Source: Candidatus Heimdallarchaeota archaeon (GTDB taxonomy: Archaea; Asgardarchaeota; Heimdallarchaeia; Heimdallarchaeales; Heimdallarchaeaceae). Taken from it: a stretch of DNA of 46,766 nucleotides. Of this stretch, positions 1 to 36,656 are shown piece after piece. A model generated the notes under the pieces. That model searched no databases. It was given only the letters and a program-made list of their open reading frames with translations, and had not been told where the DNA came from. Made by a program: the position numbers and the translations under genes. Numbering within the stretch: position 1 is the first letter of the stretch; every line of letters begins with the position of its first letter. Location of the stretch: contig JAEOTE010000033.1 in the NCBI GenBank assembly GCA_016839945.1, positions 1 to 46,766 of the forward strand, in the 5' to 3' direction.

Positions 1-1266
1 CCAGATGATGGTTTTGTCAATCTACACTCTTTAATTTTGATTGTTAGTTTGATGTTTATAGTACAAATATCAGATGAAGCAGGAGTTTTTCAATTTCTAG
101 GTGTTCTAGCTATAAAACTATCAAGAGGAAAACCACTATTTCTTATGTCAATACTTTGCATAATTTCTGTTATTTTTTCTTCTTTAATTAACAACATACT
201 TACTGTAATGATACTGATTCCTTTAACAATAACTATTTCGCGAATTCTAAATATTGATCCTACACCATATATTCTGACAGAAGCCATTATGGTAAATGTT
301 GGAGGAACATTCTTCTCTATTTCATCAATCCCAAACATATTAATTGTTACAGAAACTAATATAGGTTTTAATGAATTTTTTATAAATGTTGGCTTATTTT
401 CATTGGTTACTGCAGGCATTACTATTGGTTTCTTCATATTTCTTTACTCTCGAGAATTAAGGGAACCAGGAAAACGATGGATTTCAACATTAGAGGAATT
501 CAATGTGTGGAACTTTGTTCAAAGTAGGAGATTATTATATGCCTCAATAAGTTCTTTAGTAATTTTAATGCTAGCATTTATTGTGATCCCTTCTAACATT
601 ATTCCTCCTAGCATAATTGCTCTTTCAATAGCTATGATTTTGACAATTTTCAGTTCTTTTAGTGGTTTAAAACCAAAAGAAATAATGCAAAAATTTGATA
701 TAGAGCTTCTGCTCTATCTGTTAGGTATCTTTGTAATAGCTGGTGCTTTAGAGGTAGTAGGGATTATTGAAATTATAGGTAACATTCTCAAAAATATTGG
801 AGCTAATAATCCTATATTTCAATTAATTCTTATTGTCTGGGTTTCTGCATTTCTTAGTTCTTTGATTGATAATATTCCAATTACTAAAGTGCTAATTCCT
901 ATCGTGGGAATTATGTCAACAGATAACAGCTATTTCTATGCTTTATCAATTGGAGCAAATTGGGGTGATAATTTGACTCCTTTGGGAGATAATATCTTGG
1001 TTTTGAATATTGCTGAACAAAATAAAAGACCGATAAAAATCAAAACATTTTGGAAAATAGGTTTTACAACAACCATAATTCAATTAATTTTTGGAACACT
1101 TTACTTTACACTATTTTCCACAGACACCTATTTGATTGGTTTAATCATTCTATCAGCTATTTTGCTGATACTTGGAATAGTTTTTATATTTTCAAAGTAT
1201 GGTACTGAACAGATAAAATCATATTTGAATAAATCAATAAATAAGTTTAGATCTTTAATTATATAA
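1..1266 (+). CDS. ArsB/NhaD (ion transporter superfamily, P-protein/SLC13-like) membrane permease, 5'-truncated by the window
   Basis: Frame is open from base 1 (ORF track starts at 37). About 11-12 hydrophobic segments. Family motifs SSLINNILTV / NVGGTFFSISSIPNIL and their repeats SSLIDNIP / ANWGDNLTPLGDN. Confidence 0.85.
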   Translation, partial: PDDGFVNLHSLILIVSLMFIVQISDEAGVFQFLGVLAIKLSRGKPLFLMSILCIISVIFSSLINNILTVMILIPLTITISRILNIDPTPYILTEAIMVNVGGTFFSISSIPNILIVTETNIGFNEFFINVGLFSLVTAGITIGFFIFLYSRELREPGKRWISTLEEFNVWNFVQSRRLLYASISSLVILMLAFIVIPSNIIPPSIIALSIAMILTIFSSFSGLKPKEIMQKFDIELLLYLLGIFVIAGALEVVGIIEIIGNILKNIGANNPIFQLILIVWVSAFLSSLIDNIPITKVLIPIVGIMSTDNSYFYALSIGANWGDNLTPLGDNILVLNIAEQNKRPIKIKTFWKIGFTTTIIQLIFGTLYFTLFSTDTYLIGLIILSAILLILGIVFIFSKYGTEQIKSYLNKSINKFRSLII

Positions 1267-4746: not shown

Positions 4747-6639
4747 GTGGAAATTATGAATTATAAAAATAACAAAAACAGACTATTATCATTTTTACAC
4801 CTATTCTTGATAATTACAGCTCTATTGATTTTCAGTTTTCAGTCCACTGCTAAACTAGACTCAGGAGCGGTGTATAATCTTCCTAACTATACTACAAGTG
4901 TTCCCTTGTATATAGATAATGATAGCGATCTTGCTGGAAACAGTTCAAGTGGTGCTGGTACTCCAAGCGATCCTTATGTAATTGAAGATCTAAGTATAAT
5001 AACTGCCGAGGATCATGGAATTTACATCAGTGGCACTACAAAGAATTTCATCATAAAAGATTGTTACATAGACGCTAACCTCTTTGGTATTTACATTTAT
5101 CAGGTAGCACAAAATACTGTTGAGATAGACAACAATATTCTCAACAGCAATTCTGGAGGACTTGCTCTTTTTGAAAATAACTATGCTAACATCACAAACA
5201 ATCTCTGCGAAAACAATACAGTTGTTGGAATTTATATTAATGAAGCTCACTATACTACTGTTAAAAACAATACTTGCAGAAATAATCCTGGAGTAGGAAT
5301 TTTTGGTGCTTACTGTGATCATAGCAATTTTATTGATAACATCAACTATAACAATGATCAGTATGGACTAAATCTCGATCATTCTGATGATTGTAATGTA
5401 ACAGAAAATACTTTCTATGATAATGGCTATTCAGGTATGTACTTACAATTTACAGTTTCATGTTCTATTTGGGACAATGAGTGTTACAATAATGGTTACC
5501 ATGGAATTTATGCAGATTCAGATGGAGGAACATCTATTACACTGAATAATATTCATGACAATACATTCAATGGTATTTTTGTTCGATCCTCAGATAGTAC
5601 TACAATTTCAAGCAACACAGTTAATGTAAATGGTGGAACTGGAATCTATCTTGATAGAGCTACTAATGCCATAGTTCAGAACAATATTGTTACAAACGAT
5701 GGTTTTCGTTTTTCAATGTCAGGTCTTGCTGATTATAGTGCATTGACTATTTCAAATAACATTGTTAATGGAAAACTACTAGGATTTAATTATGGTTTGA
5801 CTGGAACAACTATATCCAACAATTTCTTTGGTCAGTTGATTTTAGTTGATTGTGATGGGACTATAGTGAAGGATCTAACTATTCGAGACACTGATTATCC
5901 TCTATTTCTAATTGGATGTGATTCTGTTATTGTTGATAATTGTGATTTCAATTACAATATAGGGGGGAGTATAACAATTGAAGGAACAATGAATTGTACA
6001 ATTATGAATACAAAATGCAGTCATAATCAAGCAAAAGCAGGAATTTTTGCTGGTGGAGTAATGGATACTGTGTTCAAAAATGTTACAGCAAGTCACAATG
6101 ATTATGGGATGCAACTTGTTTCGAGTACAAACTTCACTATTCTTGATTGTACATTCAATATGAATAATTTTGCAGGTGCATTTCTTTCTGAAGGTGCATT
6201 TGGAAACATCATACATAATGGTTTTACCAATGGTGGCTCTGTAGGGCTTCACTTTATGAATTATGATGTTGTGAATATTACTCACAATCTTTTTGAAGGG
6301 AATACAGGTTATGCAATATTTCTAGACTCCTTATCCACTAATAGCTGGATACATCATAATGCCTTTATTTCCAACAATCTTGCAGGAACATCACAAGCAA
6401 GAGATGACACTGCAAATCTAAACATGTGGGATGATCCTTGGAGTATGGAAGGGAACTATTGGAATGACCATGTTAGCGGAAATTATACTCTTGATGGTAC
6501 ATGGAAAGTTAATGATACATATCCATTAGGTAGTATCCCTCCAGGTGTAAGTGAATTCAAGCAATACTCACTATATTTTGTACTTCTCCTTCCTGTCATT
6601 TTAATTTCTGCAGGTATCTACAGAAAGAGGAAGAAATAA
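4747..6639 (+). CDS. Secreted/surface right-handed parallel beta-helix (NosD/CASH-like) protein with C-terminal sorting signal
   Basis: N-terminal signal/TM segment, GAGTPSDPYVIE motif, many GIY..N..I.NN repeats, GNYWNDH...DTYPL near the C-terminus, and a VSEF + hydrophobic helix + RKRKK tail. ATG at 4756 is an alternative start. Confidence 0.85.
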   Translation: MEIMNYKNNKNRLLSFLHLFLIITALLIFSFQSTAKLDSGAVYNLPNYTTSVPLYIDNDSDLAGNSSSGAGTPSDPYVIEDLSIITAEDHGIYISGTTKNFIIKDCYIDANLFGIYIYQVAQNTVEIDNNILNSNSGGLALFENNYANITNNLCENNTVVGIYINEAHYTTVKNNTCRNNPGVGIFGAYCDHSNFIDNINYNNDQYGLNLDHSDDCNVTENTFYDNGYSGMYLQFTVSCSIWDNECYNNGYHGIYADSDGGTSITLNNIHDNTFNGIFVRSSDSTTISSNTVNVNGGTGIYLDRATNAIVQNNIVTNDGFRFSMSGLADYSALTISNNIVNGKLLGFNYGLTGTTISNNFFGQLILVDCDGTIVKDLTIRDTDYPLFLIGCDSVIVDNCDFNYNIGGSITIEGTMNCTIMNTKCSHNQAKAGIFAGGVMDTVFKNVTASHNDYGMQLVSSTNFTILDCTFNMNNFAGAFLSEGAFGNIIHNGFTNGGSVGLHFMNYDVVNITHNLFEGNTGYAIFLDSLSTNSWIHHNAFISNNLAGTSQARDDTANLNMWDDPWSMEGNYWNDHVSGNYTLDGTWKVNDTYPLGSIPPGVSEFKQYSLYFVLLLPVILISAGIYRKRKK

Positions 6640-6640
6640 T

Positions 6641-6678
6641 CTCTTTCTATTTTTCTTTTTTCTCCCTGATTTTTTTTC
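6641..6678 (+). terminator. Pyrimidine/oligo-T terminator
   Basis: ctctttctatttttcttttttctccctgattttttttc directly after the stop codon. Confidence 0.45.
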
Positions 6679-6735
6679 ATAGTATAATCGCAATTTACAT
6701 AAATAGATGAAATTTCTACTTACTGGGAACTGCTA

Positions 6736-7737
6736 ATGGATCAAGAGTATGTAACTAACAATATGCACCCTTTCTTTAAGACTATTCAAAGAAAGTATAC
6801 CGGACCAGTTTTTGATGCTCACACACATCTTGGTTCAGTCAAAGAAGTCAGAACAATGGTAAAATACGAGAAAAGATTCAATGTTAAGAAGATCTTTGGC
6901 ATAGTAAGAGATTATGAAAACAGAAAGAAACTAGAGAAAGCATTCCCAGATTTGTTTGTTTATGCCACTTTCTTATCAATCAGAGAAGCTTTACAAGGAG
7001 ATACGAAAAGTTCTCTTGATTTCTTAGAAAAAGCATATGAACAAGGTTTTACTATAGGAAAACTTTGGTTCTCTCCAAGATGGGTGAACTACTTTAAATC
7101 GGAAAATTTCAAGATTAAATTCCGTCCTCAAGATGTTCATTTAAATGACCCCCAACTTGAACCACTTTTTTCAATGTTGGAGGACTTACGATTTACATTA
7201 CTTATTCATGTAAGCGATCCTGATATTCTCTATGAGAAAAATTACCAACCCCCTAGTAAATATGGTGTAAAGAAGGATCATATTGATGCTTTTAAAAATA
7301 TATTAGAAACATACCCAAAACTCAAAATCATTGGAGCTCATATGGCAAGTCAACCAGAAAATCTCAAACAATTGGATAAATGGTTGGATAAATATCCTAA
7401 TCTTCATGTGGACACAGGTTCTGCAAAATGGATGGTGAGGGAATTTGCTTACAAAAAAGAAGAAGTAATTAAATTCTTTAAAAAACACAAAAATCGTATT
7501 TTATTTGGTACTGATTTTGTTGCAGGAAGAAAAGATAGGGAACCTATTCCTGGTTATTATGTTAACCGTTTTCTTAGTTTTCAAGCTTTATTTGAAACAG
7601 ATGTAGAATCACTCCAGTTACCAATACCAGACCCTGAAAACGACAATAACACAAAAATAAATGGACTTGACTTATCATTAGATATTCTATCAAAAATATA
7701 TTGGGAAAATAGTGAGAAACTATTTCTATCAAAATAA
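6736..7737 (+). CDS. Amidohydrolase_2 family metal-dependent hydrolase
   Basis: Metal-binding motifs DAHTH, LIHVSDP, GAHMA, HVDTG and RILFGTD. Confidence 0.85.
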   Translation: MDQEYVTNNMHPFFKTIQRKYTGPVFDAHTHLGSVKEVRTMVKYEKRFNVKKIFGIVRDYENRKKLEKAFPDLFVYATFLSIREALQGDTKSSLDFLEKAYEQGFTIGKLWFSPRWVNYFKSENFKIKFRPQDVHLNDPQLEPLFSMLEDLRFTLLIHVSDPDILYEKNYQPPSKYGVKKDHIDAFKNILETYPKLKIIGAHMASQPENLKQLDKWLDKYPNLHVDTGSAKWMVREFAYKKEEVIKFFKKHKNRILFGTDFVAGRKDREPIPGYYVNRFLSFQALFETDVESLQLPIPDPENDNNTKINGLDLSLDILSKIYWENSEKLFLSK

Positions 7738-7780
7738 ATACACCTAATACCTTTTTATATGTAAAATTAGAGATATTATA

Positions 7781-7966
7781 TTGAGTGATTTTATGCCAGT
7801 TGGAGAATTTCGAGAAGATAAGTATGAGCTAACTGATTTAAGCTCTGCAAATATTGAGGGAATAGGGTTATACATAAATTTCATTGTACAGAAATTAGAT
7901 GAGCTAATTGTGGCTTTCAATGACTTAGAGAGAAAAGTTATAGAGATGGAAAAGAGTATAAAATAG
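7781..7966 (+). CDS. Small hypothetical protein with C-terminal coiled coil
   Basis: Fills the gap between the amidohydrolase and the convergent ABC gene. Natural-looking composition and a heptad tail (LDELIVAFNDLERKVIEMEKSIK). Confidence 0.5.
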   Translation: MSDFMPVGEFREDKYELTDLSSANIEGIGLYINFIVQKLDELIVAFNDLERKVIEMEKSIK

Positions 7967-8010
7967 CTCATCATTATTTCTTAAGATGAAAACTTTTTTC
8001 CTTATTTTTC

Positions 8011-9828
8011 TTACACTAATTTCGCAGCTTGTTCTACATATTCTAATGACTGATGTCTAAAGTACATATCAAAGAGCTGCCAGTATTTGCCTTTCTTTTC
8101 CATTAATTCTGCATGAGTCCCCTCTTCTTGAATTTGAGCATCATCTATTACTATTATACGGTCAGCATTTTCAACAGTTGTTAATCTATGGGCAATGATA
8201 ATCGCTGTTCTATCTTTTAAAAGAACCTTCAATGCTTCCTGAATTAATGATTCAGTATATGCATCTATAGCAGCTGTTGCTTCATCTAAAATTAATATTT
8301 TAGGATCAGATAACAATGCACGTGCAAATGCTACAAGTTGCTTTTGTCCTGCTGAAAGTTTGGTCCCTTTTTCACCAACCTCTGTATCCATCCCATTCGG
8401 TAGACTCTGGATGAACTCCCAAGCATAGACATTCTTTGCAGCTAACTCTATTTCTTCTCTAGTAGCATCTAGATTTCCGTATCTGATGTTCTCTTCTATT
8501 GAACCACTGAAGAGAATGTTATCTTGAAGAACAATACCTATTTGATCTCTATATTCTTGTATAACAAATTTTCTTATATCAGATTCATCAACAATAATAG
8601 AACCATCAACTACATCATAAAAACGGGCAAGTAAAGAGACTAAGGTACTCTTACCAGCTCCCGTTCTCCCAACTATTGCAACAGTTTGACCAGCTGGAAT
8701 TGAAAGAGTAAATTCTTTGAATAGAGGTTCAGAAGGATTATAGTAGAAAGTCATATTTGAGAAATCTATTTTTCCAGAAAAATCTGTGACTGTGAGTGGA
8801 TTTGAATCTTCAACTACAGATGGTTTACTATCCATCAAACTGAATATTCTTTCAACAGCTGCTAATCCTGCTTCGAATTGATTAAAGAATCTTGTAATTT
8901 CTAACAATGGCATGAAAAATCTATTTAACATTAAGATGAAGAAATATAGTGTTGCAACGCTTAAACCTCCAACTTGAAAAGTTATTTTTCCACCATAAAA
9001 GAGCACAAGAAAAGTTCCCACACCAAATAGTGTTTCTATTATTGGGAAGAATATACTCATACCCCATGCCCTTACATAAGCGGCTCGATAGTTTCTCATG
9101 TTGATTCCTTTGAATCTCTCAAAAGCTTCTTTCTCTTGATTGAAGCTTTTTGTTACTTCAATACCTGAAATTGATTCAGCAACATTAGCGTTTAATATTG
9201 CTATAGTCTTTCTCCAATTTTTAGAAGTTCTCCTAGAGAATAATCGAATTCCAATTCCTAGACCAAAAAGAATGGGGACTACAGCTAGAGTTATTCCTGC
9301 TAGTCTGACATCAGTAATGAAAAGTATGATAATAACTATGAGCATAACAAAAATGTTAATCATAAAAGAAGTTGTAAGTTGAACCATCTGAGATATAGTG
9401 TCAGAATCACTAGTTACTCGACTGACTAACTTTCCACTTTTATTCTCATCATAAAACTTCATATCGTTTCGTAATAATGTTTCGAAACTATCCTTTCTAA
9501 CTCTTCTTAACATTTCTCCTGTAAGAATTGCACTGTTATAGAGAGCTCGATACTGAGCAAACCAGAACATTCCATATAGAACGATAACAGCTGCTGCTTC
9601 AACATAGAATACAGCGTTAAAAACTCCATTTTGTACTCCTGTAATAACGAATTTAATGAAGAAGGGAATTCCAATGTTAGCACCTGTTTGAATTATCATC
9701 CATGAAAGAACCTTGAAGAAAGTCTTCATATCATGTTTAGCTATGTAACCAAATAATCTTTTGAAGAGATATATATCACCATATTTTCGGTCATATTTTT
9801 CATCTGGAAGCTCTTGTATGAAACCCAT
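8011..9828 (-). CDS. ABC exporter half-transporter (TMD+NBD), TM288/TmrA-like subunit
   Basis: Six-TM domain, Walker A GRTGAGKS, signature LSAGQKQ, Walker B LILDEAT, switch IAHRL. Confidence 0.93.
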   Translation of the reverse strand: MGFIQELPDEKYDRKYGDIYLFKRLFGYIAKHDMKTFFKVLSWMIIQTGANIGIPFFIKFVITGVQNGVFNAVFYVEAAAVIVLYGMFWFAQYRALYNSAILTGEMLRRVRKDSFETLLRNDMKFYDENKSGKLVSRVTSDSDTISQMVQLTTSFMINIFVMLIVIIILFITDVRLAGITLAVVPILFGLGIGIRLFSRRTSKNWRKTIAILNANVAESISGIEVTKSFNQEKEAFERFKGINMRNYRAAYVRAWGMSIFFPIIETLFGVGTFLVLFYGGKITFQVGGLSVATLYFFILMLNRFFMPLLEITRFFNQFEAGLAAVERIFSLMDSKPSVVEDSNPLTVTDFSGKIDFSNMTFYYNPSEPLFKEFTLSIPAGQTVAIVGRTGAGKSTLVSLLARFYDVVDGSIIVDESDIRKFVIQEYRDQIGIVLQDNILFSGSIEENIRYGNLDATREEIELAAKNVYAWEFIQSLPNGMDTEVGEKGTKLSAGQKQLVAFARALLSDPKILILDEATAAIDAYTESLIQEALKVLLKDRTAIIIAHRLTTVENADRIIVIDDAQIQEEGTHAELMEKKGKYWQLFDMYFRHQSLEYVEQAAKLV

Positions 9829-27836: not shown

Positions 27837-27949
27837 GATATCTAAAGAAGGAAGAACAAAATCCTTCATCCAATTTTTTTTTTGTTTTAAAATGCGTAAG
27901 TAAAATTTAATATATAGCTTTTAATCAGTACTTCGTATTAGTGATTGTT

Positions 27950-28963
27950 ATGAAAATAAGAATAGGAATAAATGGATTTGGAAGAATAGGACGAGGAATT
28001 TTTCACGCAGGATTTAACAATGAGAATCTTGAATTTGTGGGCATTAATGACATCACTGACGCTAAAACTCTAGCACATATGTTAAAGTATGATAGCGTGC
28101 ATGGACGATTTTCACAGGATGTAGAGTACACAGAGAATTCTCTAATCATTAATGGAAAGGAGATACCAATTTCCAAGGAGAGAGATCCAGCAGATATACC
28201 ATGGGATAAATGGGAAGTTGATTTAGTTTTTGAATGTGTAGGAATATTTAGAACTTATGAGTTAGCTTCAAAACATCTAAAGGGAGGAGTTAAAGGAGTC
28301 TTACTCTCTGCACCAGATAAAGGAAAAGTCACTCCAATTCCAACATTTGTTATGGGAGTTAACGAAGAATCTTATGAACCTGAACAACATAAAGTAATTT
28401 CTAATGCAAGCTGCACCACTAACTGTTATGCTCCAGTTACAAAAGTTATCGATGATAATTTTGGGATAGAATCAGGTTATATGACAACCGTTCATTCTTA
28501 TACAACAGATCAAAAAATCCTTGACTTACCTCACAGTGATTTAAGACGTGCAAGAGCTGCAGCTTTGTCAATGATACCAACATCAACAGGAGCTGCTACT
28601 GCTGTAGGAAAAGTCCTTCCCCATTTGGAAGGAAAACTACAAGCAATTTCAATAAGAGTACCCACACCTAATGTTTCATTAATAGATTCTATTTACAGTT
28701 TAGAAAAAGAAGTCACAAAAGAGGAAGTGAATAATGCATTTATTGATGCGTCTAAAACCAAATTAAAAGGCATACTAGACGTATCTAAAGAGCCACTAGT
28801 TTCATATGATTATAATGGAAATCCATATTCTGCAACCGTTGATTTACCTTTGACTATGTCTTATAAGAATCAAATTAAGATTGTTGCATGGTATGATAAT
28901 GAGACAGGTTATTCACACAGAATGATTGATTTAGCAAAATATGTAATGAGTAAAGTAAGTTAA
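27950..28963 (+). CDS. gap: Glyceraldehyde-3-phosphate dehydrogenase, type I (bacterial/eukaryotic class)
   Basis: GINGFGRIGR, YDSVHGRF, SNASCTTNC, MTTVHSYT, DLRRARAA, IPTSTGAA, AWYDNE. ATG 27950 is preceded by GTGA (ORF track gives GTG 27941). Confidence 0.96.
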   Translation: MKIRIGINGFGRIGRGIFHAGFNNENLEFVGINDITDAKTLAHMLKYDSVHGRFSQDVEYTENSLIINGKEIPISKERDPADIPWDKWEVDLVFECVGIFRTYELASKHLKGGVKGVLLSAPDKGKVTPIPTFVMGVNEESYEPEQHKVISNASCTTNCYAPVTKVIDDNFGIESGYMTTVHSYTTDQKILDLPHSDLRRARAAALSMIPTSTGAATAVGKVLPHLEGKLQAISIRVPTPNVSLIDSIYSLEKEVTKEEVNNAFIDASKTKLKGILDVSKEPLVSYDYNGNPYSATVDLPLTMSYKNQIKIVAWYDNETGYSHRMIDLAKYVMSKVS

Positions 28964-28965
28964 TC

Positions 28966-29331
28966 TCACTCCTCTTTTACACTTTTTATTAATCCTACAA
29001 ACGCCTTATATAGACACTCAGGACATCCTTGTGCATTTGGATCCATAAAAAGTAACACTTCTCTTGTTTTTTCATAAAATTCTCTTTGTATTAGCGTGTC
29101 GTTTATTTTTACTACCATTTGCTTTGTAGGGCAAAATATGTTTTCATCACTATTTGTGGTTACAGCATTTAGACAAAATAATGGATTCTTGAATTCCTCT
29201 AAATCTGCAACAAAAAGTTCTTCAGGATCATAGAAAGATATAAGCAATATTTGTTCAAACTCATCCTCCAATATACAGTATGTTACATTCTCCATTTCTC
29301 TATACATTGGACACGGTTGCATGATCCACAA
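28966..29331 (-). CDS. Small Cys-rich hypothetical protein
   Basis: 121 aa with six Cys, including two CP motifs and a terminal GCPEC. Convergent with gap. ATG at 29322 is an alternative start. Confidence 0.6.
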   Translation of the reverse strand: MWIMQPCPMYREMENVTYCILEDEFEQILLISFYDPEELFVADLEEFKNPLFCLNAVTTNSDENIFCPTKQMVVKINDTLIQREFYEKTREVLLFMDPNAQGCPECLYKAFVGLIKSVKEE

Positions 29332-29431: not shown

Positions 29432-32400
29432 TTAACCAGCTCTCATAGGAGCTCTACTTCTAAATTCATAGTAGATTTTGGTTATTTCTCTTACCATTTC
29501 CTCATTGAATGTAACTATTAGTACAGGTTCTCCGCTAGGAGCTTTATGTCCAAGAAAACCTTCTTCAATTCCATCTCTTGTTCCTAACATTACTGTTAAT
29601 TGTGGATCGTCCTTTACTGTAACATTTCCCATACTTAGCAGTTTATTTAACACAGCTTTATCTGCATCAGAATGAGATCCAGTATTAGTAACTATTTCCA
29701 GTTTTCTACCAAACTCATCAAGAAAGTCTGCATCTATCCAGTGTAATAAGGGAGATATGACAGTCGCTGAAGATTTAGTATGTCTTAATAATGACATCAT
29801 TGCTCCATAAACCTGTTCATTACCTGAAATTAACCAAATGTCTTCGATAGGGCTTGGTTCAATTCCTTTTCCTAGAGACAGAACATTCTTGAGTAATTTC
29901 ATTGATTCTCCTGTTGCCGCTAAAACCACATCAATCTTACTTGGGATAGCATTTAATATTCCTGTGATGTTTGCATCGACGTTTTCTATGTCGTTTTGTG
30001 TTCCTTTAATGATTTCTTCCTTGAAGGCCATTATTTGTGAGTTGTATTGTTCTCTTTGAGTGTCTGCTATTTGTGAATCTTGCAAAGCTTTATCCAATTT
30101 CTCTTTTAGAGAATTCAAAAATGAGCTAAACAGATCATCAATAGCTTTTTCTAGATTCTTAAGATCAGTTCCTATAGTTTCATTACCAGAAGTTATAGCT
30201 TCTGTAAGAGTGTCCCTTGTTCCTTGAATGCTTGTTACTAGTGCTGAAGAATTTGCATCTGAATTTGTAATAAAACTGTTAATCTGATGTGTAATGTTCA
30301 GTTCATAATCGTTCTTCTCCTTCTCAAACTCTTCTTGAATTGAAGTTACATTATTACTAAATTCAGTGGCCATTTGTTCATGTGTGTTTTCTAAATCCTT
30401 ATGGACACCAGCATACATGTTGTCTATTTCGCTTTGAGTTTTCTCTTGAAATTCCTTAATAGAAGTTGTAAGTTTATTACCAAAAGCTTTGGAATCAGTA
30501 TTAACCCACTTTGGATAATCTTTGGATAATTTCTGTAATTCTCCTTTTGTTTGAGTTATAGCTTCATCCAACAGTGAGGATTTTTCAGGAGATACAGTTA
30601 ATTCTGCCATTAATCCTTCAGTACTTTCCAAAAATTGTTGAACTTCTTGTTCAATTAAGCTGTCAATTTCATTTTCTACTGCTGCTGTTTGAGTACTATA
30701 ATTTGCTGCAGCTTCATCCAAAGTAACTGAAACATCAGTATCAAGTGCATTTTTTGCGGAATCAAATTCACCTTGTAATGATTCCATTGTTCCATCCATC
30801 GATGAAATAACACTTTTCACTAATTTTGAATGTTCATCAATATTTGTTTTAAGAGTATCTTGAAGGTTGGTCATAACATCTTTATTATTGTTAGTCATCA
30901 AGGACAATATTTCTTCTTTTGAAGCTTGTAATGCAGCTAAGCCTTCTTCAATATGCAAGTGCATACTTGTTTTTTCTCCCTCTTCTAAATCTTCCCCTGC
31001 AGTTTCAGGGGCACTTATTAGACCTTCTAAGGAGTTTTTGATTGAATTTGTAACACCAGAAAATGCTTCAGATTCTGTTCCAACGACATCTTTTAGTTTT
31101 TTAGTACTTGTGTTTTGAATTTCATTAAATTGTTCTTCATAGGTTCCATATGTATCTACAATTGTATTCTTCATTTCGTTTAATGAAGTTGCAAATTGAT
31201 TACTTATTTCCTTCCTGGAGCCTTCTAATGTTTGACTCATTGATTGAAGAGTTCTATCTTTAAACTGTACCAAATCATCTAATCTCGAATTTATTTTCTC
31301 AAAAATATCAGTAGATAAGTTAGTCATAGAGCTTGAAAAAGTATTTATCATTTCTTCAATTTTCGATCCGACATTTTCTTTAATCAGTTGAATGTCTCTA
31401 TACATACTACCTATCTGATTCGCCATTCTAGGACCTTCATCCTTGCCAAAAACTCTCTGAAGCTGTTTAGTATCTAATCCCTGGAAAGAACTGTTTATTT
31501 CTTCCATTGTTGCTATAGCTGATTTGAATTGATCCTCAAGCTCCTTCAATCTTTCAAGACTTGCTTGATAGTTAATTTGAACAAGATTTGGAACTTGATC
31601 TCTGATATCTCGTCCTTTTTTTGAGAAATCATCAGTGAATACTTCTACATCATTCCTAAATTGTTCTTCTTTCTCGCTTACTAGGCTTTTGATGGATTCA
31701 TCATTGGTTTTTACATTATCTTCAATGTTTTTAATTACAGAACTTTTCAGCTCTTTCAAATGAGAAGTAAAACCTGTATTATATTCATCATTGGTTGTAG
31801 TGAATTGATTTATTCTGTTTTCTAGAGACTTTTGATATTTGTTAGTTTTTTTAGTTAAATCGCTTATAATGACATTTGTAGATTCTTCAAAAGCTGCCAT
31901 TATCTCTGAGATAAACAATTTAATTTGGTCACTCACTTTTTCAATAGAAGAAGACAAACTCTCTTCGAATAAATTAAATCCATTATCTATTCCTTTCTTA
32001 AGTAAAGCTAAAAGATTATCACTATTCTTCTTAAAATCACTAAGATAAGTAGTCAAATCTTTTCCAAGATTGATTTTCATTTCTTCTGTTTTTGCTTCAG
32101 TTTGGGTTATTAATTCTCCCAATTTCTCAACAGAATCAACCTTGGTTTTATTGAGTAGCTCAACAAACTGGTTTTCATTATTCTTTAGAATATTAACTGC
32201 TGTTTCCTTGGATTTATCTATGGATGTTCTAATTCTGTTTGTTGTTGCTTCTTCCAATTTCTTTAATTCTTCATTAAGGGATGTTAGAATCTGTTTTACT
32301 TTCTCTTGGTATTCATCTAATTTAGTATTATAGTTTTCAACTATTTTGTTCACAGTACCTGATAATTTCTTAGATGAATCATGTGATATTGTATTGGCAT

Positions 32401-33226
32401 CAGAAGATAATTTAACAACAGAATCATTTGTTATTTTATCTATAGTATTTTTTCTAGCTTCTGCAGCTTCTAAGAATTGTTGGCTTTGAATTGATAAACT
32501 CTCTTTTATGCCTTCCACTTTTTCCAAAACTGCATTAAGCTGAATATCTGTTCTATTATTGTGTTCTGCTTGTAGAGAACCTAATGTTTCCTCAATTTTA
32601 ATCTTGAAGTTTTCATGATGCTCTCCAATTTTATGAATTGTTGTATCAAAGGATGAAAGTACATTTTCTTTTACTCTCTGAGCAGCTTTAGCGATTACAT
32701 CACTATTTGATTCTGCCAGTGTTGAAGTTTCAGTATTTACTTTTCCTACAATTTCAGATACTTCTTTTTTACTTGAAGAAATAACTTCTGCTAAAGAGTC
32801 TAAAAATTGTTTGGATGTACTAGTTACATCTGCAGCATGACTATCTGCATTTTGAGTGATAGTATCATGAAAAGAAGCTAATTGGGATCTTAAATTTTGC
32901 ATAGTTTTGTTCCAATCAGCTTTAACATCATCACTCAAAGCTTTCAATTCATTTTCTAAACGTTGTGATACATCTTCAGTTAGTTTAATTTGTGGAGGTA
33001 AGGGGATGAAATAGGGAGTTCCTTCTTCATTCTTTGCTTTAATTTCTTTGACATATCCTTTACCTACTAACTTGTTAAGAGCACCCCTTATTGAATCAAC
33101 AGGTTGTTTGTAATATGATTGTATTTGACCCATTGTTCTAGAGCCAAACTGAACAATTGTTGCATAAACCTGTATTTCATCTTCGGTTAAACCAATTTTT
33201 TCTAATGTTCCTTCCATTTTAATCAC
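29432..33226 (-). CDS. TrmB-like protein: N-terminal wHTH, ~1040-aa helical/coiled-coil insert, C-terminal PLD-fold (TrmB effector-like) domain
   Basis: N-terminus LEKIGLTEDEIQVY...ALNKLVGKGYV...YFIPLPP matches the TrmB HTH. C-terminus IWLISGNEQV...TKSSATVISP...MLGTRDGIEEGFL matches the TrmB C-domain pattern. The middle is amphipathic helix. Confidence 0.75.
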   Translation of the reverse strand: MIKMEGTLEKIGLTEDEIQVYATIVQFGSRTMGQIQSYYKQPVDSIRGALNKLVGKGYVKEIKAKNEEGTPYFIPLPPQIKLTEDVSQRLENELKALSDDVKADWNKTMQNLRSQLASFHDTITQNADSHAADVTSTSKQFLDSLAEVISSSKKEVSEIVGKVNTETSTLAESNSDVIAKAAQRVKENVLSSFDTTIHKIGEHHENFKIKIEETLGSLQAEHNNRTDIQLNAVLEKVEGIKESLSIQSQQFLEAAEARKNTIDKITNDSVVKLSSDANTISHDSSKKLSGTVNKIVENYNTKLDEYQEKVKQILTSLNEELKKLEEATTNRIRTSIDKSKETAVNILKNNENQFVELLNKTKVDSVEKLGELITQTEAKTEEMKINLGKDLTTYLSDFKKNSDNLLALLKKGIDNGFNLFEESLSSSIEKVSDQIKLFISEIMAAFEESTNVIISDLTKKTNKYQKSLENRINQFTTTNDEYNTGFTSHLKELKSSVIKNIEDNVKTNDESIKSLVSEKEEQFRNDVEVFTDDFSKKGRDIRDQVPNLVQINYQASLERLKELEDQFKSAIATMEEINSSFQGLDTKQLQRVFGKDEGPRMANQIGSMYRDIQLIKENVGSKIEEMINTFSSSMTNLSTDIFEKINSRLDDLVQFKDRTLQSMSQTLEGSRKEISNQFATSLNEMKNTIVDTYGTYEEQFNEIQNTSTKKLKDVVGTESEAFSGVTNSIKNSLEGLISAPETAGEDLEEGEKTSMHLHIEEGLAALQASKEEILSLMTNNNKDVMTNLQDTLKTNIDEHSKLVKSVISSMDGTMESLQGEFDSAKNALDTDVSVTLDEAAANYSTQTAAVENEIDSLIEQEVQQFLESTEGLMAELTVSPEKSSLLDEAITQTKGELQKLSKDYPKWVNTDSKAFGNKLTTSIKEFQEKTQSEIDNMYAGVHKDLENTHEQMATEFSNNVTSIQEEFEKEKNDYELNITHQINSFITNSDANSSALVTSIQGTRDTLTEAITSGNETIGTDLKNLEKAIDDLFSSFLNSLKEKLDKALQDSQIADTQREQYNSQIMAFKEEIIKGTQNDIENVDANITGILNAIPSKIDVVLAATGESMKLLKNVLSLGKGIEPSPIEDIWLISGNEQVYGAMMSLLRHTKSSATVISPLLHWIDADFLDEFGRKLEIVTNTGSHSDADKAVLNKLLSMGNVTVKDDPQLTVMLGTRDGIEEGFLGHKAPSGEPVLIVTFNEEMVREITKIYYEFRSRAPMRAG

Positions 33227-34680
33227 TAATCATATAATTCGTTTTTAATAGATTCTATATTTCTTTCTAATTTTTCTAATCTACTTATTATGTCCTTACG
33301 TATTTTTTCTGATTGTTCTGCAAGTCTAAATTGTTCTTTTGCTTCTGCTTCTAAGTCAGAAATAGTGGTTTCTTGTGTGCTTGCTATCTGACCTTTAGCT
33401 GTGGAAGCAAGTGTTGAAATTTCTGCAGTACTATCTTTTTGAACTGATTCTACTCTGGCTTTAATTTGATTGCTTGTTCTTTCTATAGATGATAGTAATT
33501 CTTGAGCTTCTGCTTCTAATTCAGAAACATTTTTCTCTAAAGTTGAAGTAGATTGTTTTTCCAAAGAGGAAACTTGATTTGTAAATTTATTCATCATATC
33601 TGACATATTAGTTGATAATTCATCTTGTTCTTTAGCCAAAATTGTTTTTGATTCGTCCTTTACAGCATCTGATTGACTTGAGAATGAATTCAATATGTCA
33701 TCTACATCTTTTCCAAATTTGTTTTCGAAACCATTTAGGTCTGTTTTGTACTCCTCAAGTTGTTTGCTTGTTAGAGCTTCATAAGCTTCTATCATTGATT
33801 GTTTTGAAGTATTAAAATTAGTCATAGCTACTTCGTTAACATCAATCATACCTTTTTCATATTCAGCTAGTACTGTTTGTATCTTTGCTATTTCGTCAAC
33901 AAGATACTTATCCATTGTATCTGAAACACCTGAAAGCTCTGTTTGAATTCTTTGAACAGCATTAGTAACAAGCTGTCCTAGTTCATTTTTAATTCTGTTA
34001 AAACTTTCAAAGATAGATTCCATGTTTTCTGTGAGTTTGTCACCATACTCCGCTCGAAGATGTTCTATTGATTCTAACATAATATTTTCAGTTATGTTGA
34101 TATTACCCTCGAGCTCCTTTTTCATGTCATCAATGTTTTTGGAAAATGAAGAAATTTTATTTTCCTTTATCTCTCCAACATTAGATTTGACACTAGTTAT
34201 ATTTTTCCTGAATGTGTTTACTTGATCATTAGCAAGACGTTCAATATCTAGATTGTGAGAACTTAAAATTGAAGCTATATTTTCTTCAAAGGTTGAAGAG
34301 TAATTATCAAATTTTGTTTTATAATCAGTTAATAACGAGACTATTGATTCTTTAAGATTTGAAATACTCTCTGTTGTTTTGTTGAATTCTACTTGAACAG
34401 ACTCATTTTGTGAACTTGTCCATTCCTCTATTAGATTCACATCTTCTGAAGTATTTTTGTTAATGATATTATCTAACGTTGTTTTATTTTCTTCAATTAA
34501 ATTTCTAAGGTTCTCATTTAATGTAATAAACTTATTTTGTATTAGTGTTGAAAGTGTTTGATAATATTGTTGTAATTCTTGTAGATTCTCTAAAGATTCC
34601 TTGAAAGAAGTTATCTCACTCTCAAAATTTTCAATTTCTTTTCTTATCTTTTCTAAATCTTTTGTTACTCTCTCTGACAT
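33226..34680 (-). CDS. All-helical coiled-coil/apolipoprotein-like rod protein (484 aa)
   Basis: No Pro, no Cys, no TM segment, continuous amphipathic pattern. Preceded by SD AGGTGAGG. Its TAG stop overlaps the next GTG start. Confidence 0.75.
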   Translation of the reverse strand: MSERVTKDLEKIRKEIENFESEITSFKESLENLQELQQYYQTLSTLIQNKFITLNENLRNLIEENKTTLDNIINKNTSEDVNLIEEWTSSQNESVQVEFNKTTESISNLKESIVSLLTDYKTKFDNYSSTFEENIASILSSHNLDIERLANDQVNTFRKNITSVKSNVGEIKENKISSFSKNIDDMKKELEGNINITENIMLESIEHLRAEYGDKLTENMESIFESFNRIKNELGQLVTNAVQRIQTELSGVSDTMDKYLVDEIAKIQTVLAEYEKGMIDVNEVAMTNFNTSKQSMIEAYEALTSKQLEEYKTDLNGFENKFGKDVDDILNSFSSQSDAVKDESKTILAKEQDELSTNMSDMMNKFTNQVSSLEKQSTSTLEKNVSELEAEAQELLSSIERTSNQIKARVESVQKDSTAEISTLASTAKGQIASTQETTISDLEAEAKEQFRLAEQSEKIRKDIISRLEKLERNIESIKNELYD

Positions 34681-34688
34681 TTCCTCAC

Positions 34689-36455
34689 CTATATTTCTTC
34701 TAATTCTTTTTCTATATTCTCCATAGATACATCCTCAACCTCTGGTGGTTCAGGAGCTATTTCTTCAATTATTACCTCTTTTTCTTTTTCATATTTCATT
34801 GAGTTGAAGTAATTATGATGAATACTCTCTGCATCATACAGACTTATTGCTTTTTTGCGTATTCTTTCAAAATTGCTCTTATCCCCTACATTCGTATAAC
34901 AATCTAAACACCATTTGAGATAACCTCTAACTGCATACTCACTTTTTTCTACAGGGAGAGATGCAGCTAATTTCTCAAATTGGTCAGCTGCTCGTGTAAA
35001 GGATCTTTTAGCTTTCAATTCTTCTTCTACTGCGTCATAATACGAAGCAGATTTTAAATAAAGACGAGCTGCGAAATAATAGTTTTTCTCTTCAAATTCT
35101 CGAGCAATTTTTTCGCAAAATCCTCCTGCTTGTTCTAGTTCATTTATATGTTCAAACTGTTCAGCATTAATAATGGAAAAATCATAAGCTCTTTGAAACA
35201 TTTCTTTTTGTATGCATAAATTAGCAACTGCTTGTATTTTTGAAGCTACTGCAAAATATGAAAGTCTGTCTCTAATTTTGAAAGCTAATTGTTTTGCAGC
35301 TTCTATGAATTTAGTTGAAGGTGCAATATTGTTTTCTAGATTCTCCAATGTTGAATCTAATTTTACCATAAGTGTTGTTAAAGGACCAAACAACTTTAAT
35401 CTAAATTTAAGTGTTGATAATAATGATTCTTGAACTAAGCGTGCATTGTTTTCTCCTAACCATAGAAAGCCTTTTTCTTCTAGAAGCTTTAAAGTAGCTA
35501 AATTCACATAGGCAGTCAATTGTTCGATTGGAAAGAGATTTTCATTATATGAAGCCATTTCATAAAGAGCTTCTTCTTCTTCATCAGTCAAATCAAACAA
35601 AGATTTTAGATCTCTTTCAACAAAATTATCTAATCCCAAATCTGAGTTAATAAATGAGACACCCAGATTTAAATCAAAAAATGTTCTTTGACTATTTGTC
35701 ACTAAATCCAATACACCTTTGTTTAATAATTGAGGAGCTACCCTACGAAGATAAATTTCAGTTTCTGATACTGTTAAGGGTTCAACTCTAAGTATATTAG
35801 AATAAGTAGTTAGGTATTTTTCATAATCGAAATCAAAAAGATATTCCTCATTGAAAGCAAATACGACGAACATGTTATATCCTCTTTGATTTAATTCTTT
35901 GATAATAGAAGCAAAGATTGGGTAGAATTCATGGTAGTCAATAAATTTGAAATAATGAAGATTATCAAAGAAAAAGTATAATGTTGTATCAGTCTCTTGC
36001 AATTTCTGATTGATTTTGTCCAGATTTTCAAGGAAACGATTCACATAATATTCTGTATATGATTGACCTGAAGGCAATTTCACTTGCTCTTTTAATATTG
36101 GAAGATCATCTCCTAGTTTCTTTTTTCCAACTTTTTCAAGTAAGGATCTCCATTCAGGAGAACTATCATCGATGGCATTCTTCCATTCTTGAAAGAATTT
36201 TGCGAGTGAATCTTCTTCTGGTATTATATTCATAATCTGTGCTACGTCTTTTCTTCCAGTTACTGTTGTTGACAACTTCTGTAGCAATGAGCTTTTTCCT
36301 GTTCCTTCATCGCCAACAATTAAAATTGAGCCAATTTGAGTTTCTCCCCTCTTCTTTTTATCTACTAGGTCACTGAAAGTTTTTATGTGATCTCTTAATC
36401 CATAAAAATCATGAGGTTGACATGGTTGGAATAGCTTATTTATATCTAGACTCAT
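34689..36455 (-). CDS. STAND/AAA_16-like P-loop NTPase with wHTH and C-terminal SNAP/TPR-like helical repeats
   Basis: FYGLRDHI pre-P-loop, Walker A GDEGTGKS, Walker B FFFDNLH, LRVEPLT..ET..YL, wHTH-like LKLLEEKGFL, and C-terminal AARLYLKSASYY / FTRAADQFEK repeats. Likely ATG 36455 after SD GTGAGGA (ORF track gives 36467). Confidence 0.75.
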   Translation of the reverse strand: MSLDINKLFQPCQPHDFYGLRDHIKTFSDLVDKKKRGETQIGSILIVGDEGTGKSSLLQKLSTTVTGRKDVAQIMNIIPEEDSLAKFFQEWKNAIDDSSPEWRSLLEKVGKKKLGDDLPILKEQVKLPSGQSYTEYYVNRFLENLDKINQKLQETDTTLYFFFDNLHYFKFIDYHEFYPIFASIIKELNQRGYNMFVVFAFNEEYLFDFDYEKYLTTYSNILRVEPLTVSETEIYLRRVAPQLLNKGVLDLVTNSQRTFFDLNLGVSFINSDLGLDNFVERDLKSLFDLTDEEEEALYEMASYNENLFPIEQLTAYVNLATLKLLEEKGFLWLGENNARLVQESLLSTLKFRLKLFGPLTTLMVKLDSTLENLENNIAPSTKFIEAAKQLAFKIRDRLSYFAVASKIQAVANLCIQKEMFQRAYDFSIINAEQFEHINELEQAGGFCEKIAREFEEKNYYFAARLYLKSASYYDAVEEELKAKRSFTRAADQFEKLAASLPVEKSEYAVRGYLKWCLDCYTNVGDKSNFERIRKKAISLYDAESIHHNYFNSMKYEKEKEVIIEEIAPEPPEVEDVSMENIEKELEEI

Positions 36456-36656
36456 TATAATCCTCACACAATACTAATTCTGTAATTGGTTTTTTCCCCT
36501 TATAAAAGATACGAATGTTTATTTTTGATAAAATTATCTATAATGCTCAAAATCAAAAATAGCATTTTTTTAGTAATCTCGAATGTCGAAAAAGATAAAA
36601 GGATTTAAACTAAGAAATTTATTAACTCAAATGCAGAGGTGTATGAATGACAATAG

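Follow-up and report, generated by a model that had tools for sequence, protein, structure and literature searches.

A TrmBL2/TrmB-type protein from a Heimdallarchaeon with a hendecad rod of matched arms that probably folds back on itself

In ordinary TrmB, two domains are joined by one short dimerisation helix. The window analysed here, the whole of a 46,766-nucleotide stretch of DNA from Candidatus Heimdallarchaeota archaeon (contig JAEOTE010000033.1; ~31% G+C throughout), carries on its reverse strand a gene, P0001, whose product (hereafter the rod protein) has domains of this type at its two ends and a very long helical insert between them. This locus raises the question of how such an insert is folded and where it leaves the two end domains with respect to each other. 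The original prediction, made from the sequence alone, was that the insert folds back as an antiparallel hairpin that reunites the two domains in one DNA-binding head. Here, this fold-back interpretation is supported: a conserved module stays at the middle of the insert while the two arms on either side of it change in length together. Three genes read in the same direction and set close together encode, in this order, a STAND-type ATPase, a hendecad protein and the rod protein. Residue numbers throughout are those of the listed 1,264-amino-acid (aa) open reading frame (ORF), as in the original prediction.

Both ends of the rod protein are of the TrmB/TrmBL2 type

At the N-terminus, aa 8-72 match the TrmB family of Pfam (PF01978) with 41 bits, above the gathering score of 25.6 (E 1.7e-10), and aa 1-110 alone give 43.9 bits to the same family, which identifies a winged helix-turn-helix (wHTH). 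For the C-terminal domain (C-domain), a Pfam scan of aa 1100-1264 gave no match even at E 10, Regulator_TrmB (PF11495) included, and a direct sequence search against the PDB gave no match. When a C-domain profile built from 75 family members was compared with the PDB sequences, it matched TrmB (3qph, 2f5t) and TrmBL2 (5box and others) at E 3-5e-3, and what is aligned in TrmB and TrmBL2 is the domain after the connecting helix (residues 108-203 of 3qph and 2-94 of 2f5t).

The AlphaFold2 (AF2) model of aa 1085-1264 has a mean predicted local distance difference test (pLDDT) score of 85.6, with a core above 95. A Foldseek search with the C-domain model returned TrmBL2 chains as the eight best matches (5bpd/5bpi/5box/5bqt, E 3e-9 to 3e-7), followed by one phospholipase D (PLD) entry, then TrmB (3qph/2f5t, E 2e-6), and then further PLD/Nuc-type enzymes. 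The TrmBL2 and TrmB matches have template-modelling (TM) scores of 0.56-0.62 by query, with a sequence identity of 11-19% over the C-domain. Because the C-domain model matches TrmBL2 and TrmB before any other fold, the description of the protein as a TrmB split by a ~1040-aa insert is correct, and both end domains are identified as TrmB/TrmBL2 type by Pfam, profile and fold. Among distant C-domain relatives, P0115 scored 29.6 bits to Regulator_TrmB, which passes the cut-off of 22.2, and P0131 scored 21.9 bits; the link of the C-domain to this family is transitive and structural.

No conserved H-x-K-x4-D (HKD) motif was found among the C-domains of the family, whose hallmark in this domain is R-D-G-x-E-E-G (aa 1217-1223). 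The sugar-binding second C-terminal subdomain of TrmB is absent, and from the first residue of the PLD-like domain to the end of the rod protein there are ~146 residues. The domain borders had been placed correctly at YFIPLPPQ (aa 72-79) and at GKGIEPSP, which starts at G1119. Between the wHTH and the PLD-like domain lie ~1,037 residues in place of a short (~30-residue) connecting helix. When short proteins that share this C-domain were looked for by a word-based search, only contig-end fragments of the rod family came up.

A central module stays at the midpoint while both arms change in length

The insert has six prolines in ~1,040 residues, at positions 546, 599, 740, 880, 905 and 1095. Those at 546 and 599 had already been named correctly; the earlier positions 739, 879 and 904 were each one residue off. 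The break segment FQGLDTKQLQRVFGKDEGPR corresponds to aa 581-600, with the G598 codon at nt 31435-31433 as had been stated, and G598-P599 does lie at the arithmetic midpoint: the interval from the end of the wHTH (80-82) to the start of the C-domain (1119) gives 599.5-600.5. Four glycines and one proline are found inside 24 residues at the centre of the insert. In the 23 aligned sequences of close homologues, G594, G598 and P599 are conserved at 90% or more, G606 at 87% and G583 at 65%, and in the AF2 model the helix is interrupted at aa 583-585 and 594-596, on either side of an 8-residue tip helix. A hinge-like tip had been proposed; what is found is a Gly/Pro motif of ~17 residues that ends a conserved 70-residue module, with no globular hinge. 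The tip has no CxxC and no globular domain, and neither a hinge nor a zinc hook was recognised in it. In most of the distant members of the family, the midpoint windows show a basic Gly motif (for example, SKRVSLGKSG, NTKGLFGKKD or KKKFSLGTDE), and the motif [RK]-[DE]-x-[VIL]-P is conserved ~52 residues upstream of it.

Close relatives of the rod protein were collected by a word-based search (22 homologues, giving a 23-row alignment) and form two length classes of ~1,257 and ~1,471 aa. Compared with the ~1,257-aa class, the ~1,471-aa Heimdall class has one insert in each arm. That at position 443 is 106 aa long and that at position 732 is 104 aa long, and they sit 155 and 134 residues from G598. 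The arms measure 518/521 residues in the shorter class and 624/626 residues in the longer one, and neither of the paired inserts duplicates the other or the sequence next to it.

The same was found in a far wider set. The C-domain profile, searched against 1.84 billion cluster representatives, matched 105 proteins of 86-1,812 aa in which the domain is always C-terminal, and 63 of the 105 are full-length with an N-terminal wHTH. The central module was located with a hidden Markov model (HMM) in a search that made no use of the midpoint. Iteration past four rounds drifted into generic hendecad matches, and the positions given here come from the best hits to the complete module. In the 63-member set (714-1,812 aa), every protein that gave a full-length hit has the module at a fraction of 0.489-0.506 of its helical region. 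Once genome loci were added, the range became 0.489-0.509 over at least a dozen arm-length classes of 247-805 residues. The arm pairs are 247/248, 437/435, 485/479, 517/517-520, 575/569, 587/581, 592/589, 615/607, 622-624/620-625, 656/656, 660/657, 757/742 and 805/797, with 605/603, 663/645, 488/476, 474/493 and 662/655 from the genome loci. In at least a dozen length classes, the two arms differ by no more than ~2%. Where the tip is SKRVSLGKSG (a subfamily of 714, 1,091 and 1,534 aa), the extra residues of the longer forms lie at -201 to -401 on one side of the tip and at +191 to +389 on the other. The length differences between classes are not multiples of 11.

The sole exception to equal arms is an ORF of 1,256 aa (6041-9811, minus strand, in locus L080, G064:C1:663654-674058) with arms of 382/656 residues, whose N-terminus is aldo-keto-reductase-like (MKYRNVGNTGLKISEISLGSW...) in place of the wHTH; it is probably a rearrangement or a chimaeric assembly. 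Taken together, at least a dozen length changes are matched in both arms, and the break is central in homologues with symmetric arms, as the original prediction required. Matched changes of this kind are the signature known from SMC-type arms and chemoreceptor hairpins.

The insert is a hendecad helix

The alignment-averaged hydrophobic period of the insert is 3.66 (11/3), with a normalised power of 54-56 per arm and essentially none at 3.50. In arm 1, the phase stays at 128-184 degrees (+178 to -176 across the wrap) over aa 82-587, which amounts to 46 hendecads without a stutter. In arm 2, the phase is constant over aa 588-873, jumps near P880/P905, and is again constant from aa 896 to ~1050. 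When the sequence is folded on 11, an a-d-e-h core pattern appears. By period, phase and fold-on-11 analyses, the repeat is hendecad and not the heptad periodicity that had been considered. The hendecad register implies that there would be little supercoiling.

Self-BLAST of the rod protein revealed no internal sequence repeats. Below the threshold, Pfam matched Apolipoprotein A1/A4/E (PF01442; 79.6 bits against a cut-off of 90) and ApoLp-III, and NCBIfam matched the ZorA tail. The apolipoprotein and ZorA-tail matches are explained by the common 11-residue amphipathic periodicity and not by kinship.

Structure models and alternative readings

The AF2 model of aa 65-1264 (from the 23-row alignment) is nearly all helix, in runs of 80-200 residues, and its confidence is best around the tip (pLDDT 70-83 over aa 464-704). 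In this model, the insert is an antiparallel hairpin from tip to head. The geometry was read from the aligned ranges of a structural alignment against the whole PDB; the Z-scores of this alignment (up to 13.7) are no more than a long helical model of any kind would be expected to give, and their ranking was not used. Across the tip, the Smc coiled-coil fragments 5nnv (233/233 residues) and 5xg2 (237/237 residues) are fully aligned, and the chemoreceptor hairpins 2ch7 and 3g67 and the Rad50 rod also align, with tip-spanning model ranges that sum to ~1054-1063. Towards the head, small helical bundles of 130-140 residues align at a root-mean-square deviation of 2.5-3.2 to model ranges such as 90..978, 108..965 and 141..969. 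The paired positions have i+j of ~1054-1111 in model numbering, that is, 1182-1239 in the protein, so this low-confidence model does give the antiparallel contacts near i+j ~1200 that had been forecast. A complex prediction of the two head halves, aa 1-230 with aa 970-1264 (a 22-row alignment for each, run without controls), gave 0.08 and 0.12, where the mark is 0.32, and carries no weight in either direction.

Several features of the two arms face each other. Invariant patches of arm 1 (aa 184-225, 314-406, 416-442 and 530-556) mirror those of arm 2 (aa 973-1007, 766-894 and 629-652) about residue 596. The AF2 breaks at aa 200-204 (G201) and 376-381 lie opposite those at aa 989-993 (S989-D990-x-N992-S993) and 808-812; further breaks in arm 2 are at aa 738-753, where the model makes a loop probable, and at aa 876-880. 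When smoothed conservation (11-22 residues) of arm 1 was compared with that of reversed arm 2, the global maximum among 400 offsets was at i+j = 1192. As evidence for the fold-back, this mirrored conservation is weak.

Some observations weigh against a hairpin. The full-length AF2 model is weak (mean pLDDT 60.7, predicted TM score 0.28), single-chain prediction can spuriously fold a long amphipathic helix back, and the hairpin geometry was read only indirectly, from aligned ranges. The mirror peak of conservation is lost after detrending at 55-77 residues, when the maximum moves to i+j = 1311 (z ~2.2), and a parallel control of the conservation correlation reaches a similar r. The insertion points at 443 and 732 sum to 1175 and not to 1192, and the difference of 17 residues can be accounted for only by assigning the insert of arm 2 to the neighbouring loop at aa 738-753. 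The register jump of arm 2 near aa 880-905 has no clear counterpart in arm 1. In addition, equal arms and mirrored patches would be expected just as well in an antiparallel dimer with its two-fold axis at the point where the central modules touch. Such a dimer would have two extended chains in a rod of ~150 nm, and at each end the wHTH of one chain would lie beside the PLD-like domain of its partner. Oligomers are obligatory in the TrmB family, and a hendecad core of the a-d-e-h type has room for more than two helices, both of which agree with it. However, AF2 reverses the chain at the centre, and does so with its highest confidence there, and a fixed centre would need the extra assumption that the modules must touch. 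Because the near-invariant central breakers (the four Gly and one Pro) would have no role in a straight helix, we rate the antiparallel dimer as improbable. We regard a fold-back, or at least antiparallel pairing of the arms, as very probable, and the pairing of the arms within one chain, as in the hairpin, as probable.

The periodicity also bears on a different kind of structure, since 11-residue repeats are typical of lipid-surface helices. The insert could be a row of tandem small helical bundles, spectrin- or apolipophorin-like, or an amphipathic helix lying on lipid as in apolipoprotein-, LEA- or perilipin-like proteins; besides the sub-threshold Apolipoprotein A1/A4/E and ApoLp-III matches, the 104-106 aa step between the length classes, which equals one spectrin repeat, would suit such a protein. 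We nevertheless consider this very unlikely: arm 1 keeps one register for 46 hendecads without bundle-forming loops, there are no internal repeats, six prolines in 1,040 residues and AF2 helices of such length leave little of a bundle array, and the paired inserts and the midpoint-fixed module in a dozen length classes would be left without a reason. A parallel homodimeric coiled coil, in which the TrmB pairing helix is simply lengthened and the wHTH pair and the PLD-like pair end up ~150 nm apart, would put no constraint on the position of the central module or on paired inserts and would leave the conserved central breakers unexplained. It would also part two domains that pack together in TrmB and TrmBL2, and although the helix after the wHTH is established as a parallel dimerisation helix in the solved structures of the TrmB family, we hold this arrangement to be scarcely credible.

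Proposed architecture and comparison with known systems

Our best explanation, which we hold as a whole to be likely, is a TrmBL2/TrmB-type head on a fold-back hendecad rod, with a role as a tether proposed. The single helix between the wHTH and the PLD-like domain would have been expanded to ~1,040 residues of hendecad (11/3) helix. The chain would run out for ~518 residues, reverse at the Gly/Pro tip (aa 583-599) and return antiparallel for ~520 residues. By running out and back, it would bring the wHTH and the PLD-like domain together again as one head on a nearly straight rod of ~75 nm (518 x 0.15 nm). The heads of two chains may dimerise, as in TrmB proteins, so that two hairpins would make up a rod of four helices, and the head may bind DNA as TrmBL2 does. 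The conserved basic, Gly-rich tip might engage a partner, which could be a product of the operon (the STAND ATPase, which would be MalT-like, or the second hendecad protein), the membrane or other DNA. Our best guess at the function, a tentative one that we hold to be less likely than not, is a DNA-anchored tether or spacer of fixed length whose assembly or engagement would be controlled by the STAND ATPase and the second hendecad protein; alternatives are a regulator that passes a signal along the rod, as chemoreceptors do, and a scaffold for DNA-DNA bridging.

The closest comparison is with TrmBL2, a chromatin protein of Thermococcales (5box, 5bpd, 5bpi, 5bqt), and TrmB (3qph, 2f5t), which have the same order of wHTH, helix and PLD-like domain without HKD. 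Like TrmBL2, the rod protein is without the second, sugar-binding subdomain of TrmB. The connecting helix is ~30 residues in TrmB and TrmBL2, whereas that of the rod protein is ~1,040 residues and is proposed to fold back; unlike them, the rod family has a conserved central module of its own, and the member described here sits in an operon.

In SMC, Rad50 and MukB, a long intramolecular antiparallel coil joins N- and C-terminal parts in the head. The arms of the rod are length-matched likewise, the intrachain pairing being our reading of them, and the tip region of its AF2 model superposes on Smc (5nnv, 5xg2) and Rad50 (6zff). In contrast to these proteins, the rod protein has no ABC ATPase head halves, no hinge or zinc hook and no kleisin; its coil is hendecad- and not heptad-based, its head is of a sequence-type DNA binder, and there is no sequence relationship. 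No SMC, Rad50 or ABC domain was found in Pfam and NCBIfam scans of P0001. The original phrase 'without an SMC ATPase' thus holds for the protein itself, but a P-loop ATPase, of the STAND type, is encoded two genes upstream in the conserved operon.

The cytoplasmic hairpin of methyl-accepting chemotaxis proteins (MCPs) is the other parallel. MCP length classes differ by symmetric indels in both arms, and the MCP dimer is a four-helix rod. MCP hairpins (2ch7, 3g67, 1qu7) match aa 422-763 of the rod structurally, and both have a conserved tip. However, MCPs are membrane receptors with ~130-200 residues per arm, heptads and a tip that binds CheA/CheW, whereas the rod family has 250-800 residues per arm, hendecads and a predicted DNA-binding head. 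RacA of Bacillus subtilis, with a helix-turn-helix (HTH) head and a coiled coil, links chromosomal DNA to a remote partner at the membrane. It offers a functional analogy only: it has a MerR-type HTH and a short parallel coil, with no fold-back, no PLD-like domain and no homology to the rod.

Distribution and significance

The C-domain profile matches 388 of 400 Asgard genomes, including 89 of 90 high-quality ones, usually with 1-8 matches per genome and enclosing open frames of ~670 to ~1,800 aa; some of the weaker matches may be ordinary TrmB proteins. Members with a named source belong to Heimdall-, Thor-, Loki/Promethe-, Hel-, Hod-, Kari- and Freyarchaeota, and all source names seen are Asgard. 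The closest named homologues are from metagenome-assembled genomes of Heimdallarchaeota, and a search for related loci gave mostly Heimdall-labelled ones. A full-text literature search found no description of a TrmB-type protein in archaea that contains a long coiled coil.

A rigid rod of coded length that carries a DNA-binding head would be a new design for a nucleoid protein, and rods of 35-120 nm would be large on the scale of Asgard cells. The family makes nucleoid organisation in the archaeal relatives of eukaryotes testable. For the structural biology of coiled coils, the unbroken helix of 46 hendecads is of interest as what may be a natural, very long and nearly untwisted helical pair. 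It is conceivable, as a speculation to which we give a low probability, that the rod, its hendecad partner and a MalT-like STAND ATPase form an Asgard-specific machine, switched by the ATPase, that keeps chromosomal DNA a fixed 35-120 nm, according to the paralogue, away from membrane, cytoskeleton or other DNA. If this were true, the closest relatives of eukaryotes would have prokaryotic length-coded chromatin tethers, with a logic like that of lamina or LINC tethering.

Gene coordinates and genomic neighbourhood

The coordinates of the features are collected in Table 1. The N-terminus is MESTLEK in homologues of 1,256-1,261 aa; because of this, the start was placed at the ATG at 33217 (M4 of the listed ORF), which is probably the true start. 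It leaves a gap of 8 nt after the stop codon of the upstream gene, compared with an overlap of 1 nt for the listed start.

Table 1. Features of the rod protein and its operon in the window. The last three were read from the sequence only.
Feature	Position (nt)	Strand	Basis and remarks
Rod protein gene (P0001)	29432..33226	-	Stop-free open frame, 1,264 aa as listed; 1,261 aa from the probable start
TrmB-type wHTH, aa 8-72	33011..33205	-	Pfam PF01978
Arm 1, aa 82-582, hendecad helix (46 repeats without a change of register, a-d-e-h core)	31481..32983	-	Phase scan, AF2 helix
Conserved central module, aa 530-599 (R542-D543-x-V545-P546, ~52 residues, tip)	31430..31639	-	HMM, conservation, AF2
Tip proper, aa 583-599 (G583, short helix DTKQLQRV, G594, G598-P599)	within central module	-	Conservation, AF2
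Arm 2, aa 600-1118, hendecad helix	29873..31429	-	Phase scan, prolines, AF2
C-terminal PLD-like domain, TrmB/TrmBL2 type, aa 1119-1264, without HKD motif	29435..29872	-	AF2 model, Foldseek, profile
Second operon gene (P0002), 484-aa proline-free hendecad helical protein	33226..34680	-	Translation
First operon gene (P0003), STAND-type P-loop ATPase (AAA_16) with helical-repeat C-terminal half	34689..36467	-	Pfam; probable start ATG 36455
TATA-like box TTTTATAA, ~45 nt upstream of the ATPase ATG	36500..36507	-	Candidate
GAGGA ribosome-binding-like site	36461-36465	-	Candidate
Two oligo-T runs (T7, T7) directly after the rod stop codon	29393..29410	-	Putative terminator

The product of the first gene, P0003, has 592 aa and matches AAA_16 of Pfam with E 3.7e-12. 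The language-model features of its C-terminal half resemble the WHD_MalT, TPR and SNAP clusters (0.84-0.90, to be read as leads only). The orthologues of P0002 at the same position have a local hendecad power of 7-11, compared with ~1.5 for heptads. The two oligo-T runs, judged by their letters, are a probable archaeal terminator that would close the three-gene unit.

The order of three genes recurs in loci of the Heimdall group, Freyarchaeota, Promethearchaeota and other Asgard genomes of this phylum, with different flanking genes. A two-gene variant was found at two loci (L070 in G126:C3 and L078 in G127:C5), where a P0003-related ATPase of 622-627 aa lies directly upstream of a rod of 1,048-1,123 aa with no partner between them. 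Most shorter rod paralogues stand alone. The genome analysed here has two more matches to the C-domain profile, at G000:C43:18606-19106 (minus strand) and G000:C34:17917-18420 (plus strand), with E ~1e-26 and enclosing frames of ~809 and ~747 aa, respectively; the 801-aa rod paralogue ORF of this genome has no ATPase or hendecad partner upstream.

We considered whether the 484-aa neighbour, P0002, is length-matched to one arm of the rod and rejected this, as the length of the partner (425-773 aa) is independent of arm length. Partners of ~770 aa occur with rods of 1,176, 1,392, 1,532 and 1,812 aa, and partners of 425-485 aa with rods of 1,256-1,489 aa. Since partner length does not follow arm length, the near agreement of 484 aa with one arm at this locus is a coincidence. 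P0002 and the partner ORFs in L005, L007, L065, L076 and L089 may be fold-back hairpins themselves. Compared with P0002, orthologues of 717-773 aa have extra residues near both termini (positions 0-150 and 431-454 of 484), and a 436-aa form differs at positions 41 and 408-436, at identities of 12-17% at which the alignment is unreliable.

Other genes lie close to the operon. Downstream of the rod gene is an ORF for a Cys-containing protein of 121 aa (28966-29331, minus strand), which is probably a separate transcription unit because it lies beyond the oligo-T runs. Three Heimdall loci (L001-L003) have an ORF of 121-124 aa at the same place, and the operons of other Asgard lineages lack it; the 121-aa protein gave no Pfam or NCBIfam match. 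In a Freyarchaeota locus (L004, 589-2708), the operon is directly preceded by two genes for small GTPases of the Arf/Ras/Roc type, which share its strand. A glyceraldehyde-3-phosphate dehydrogenase gene (27941-28963, plus strand) is convergent to the rod operon, and Gp_dh_N and Gp_dh_C are both matched in the syntenic L001-L003.

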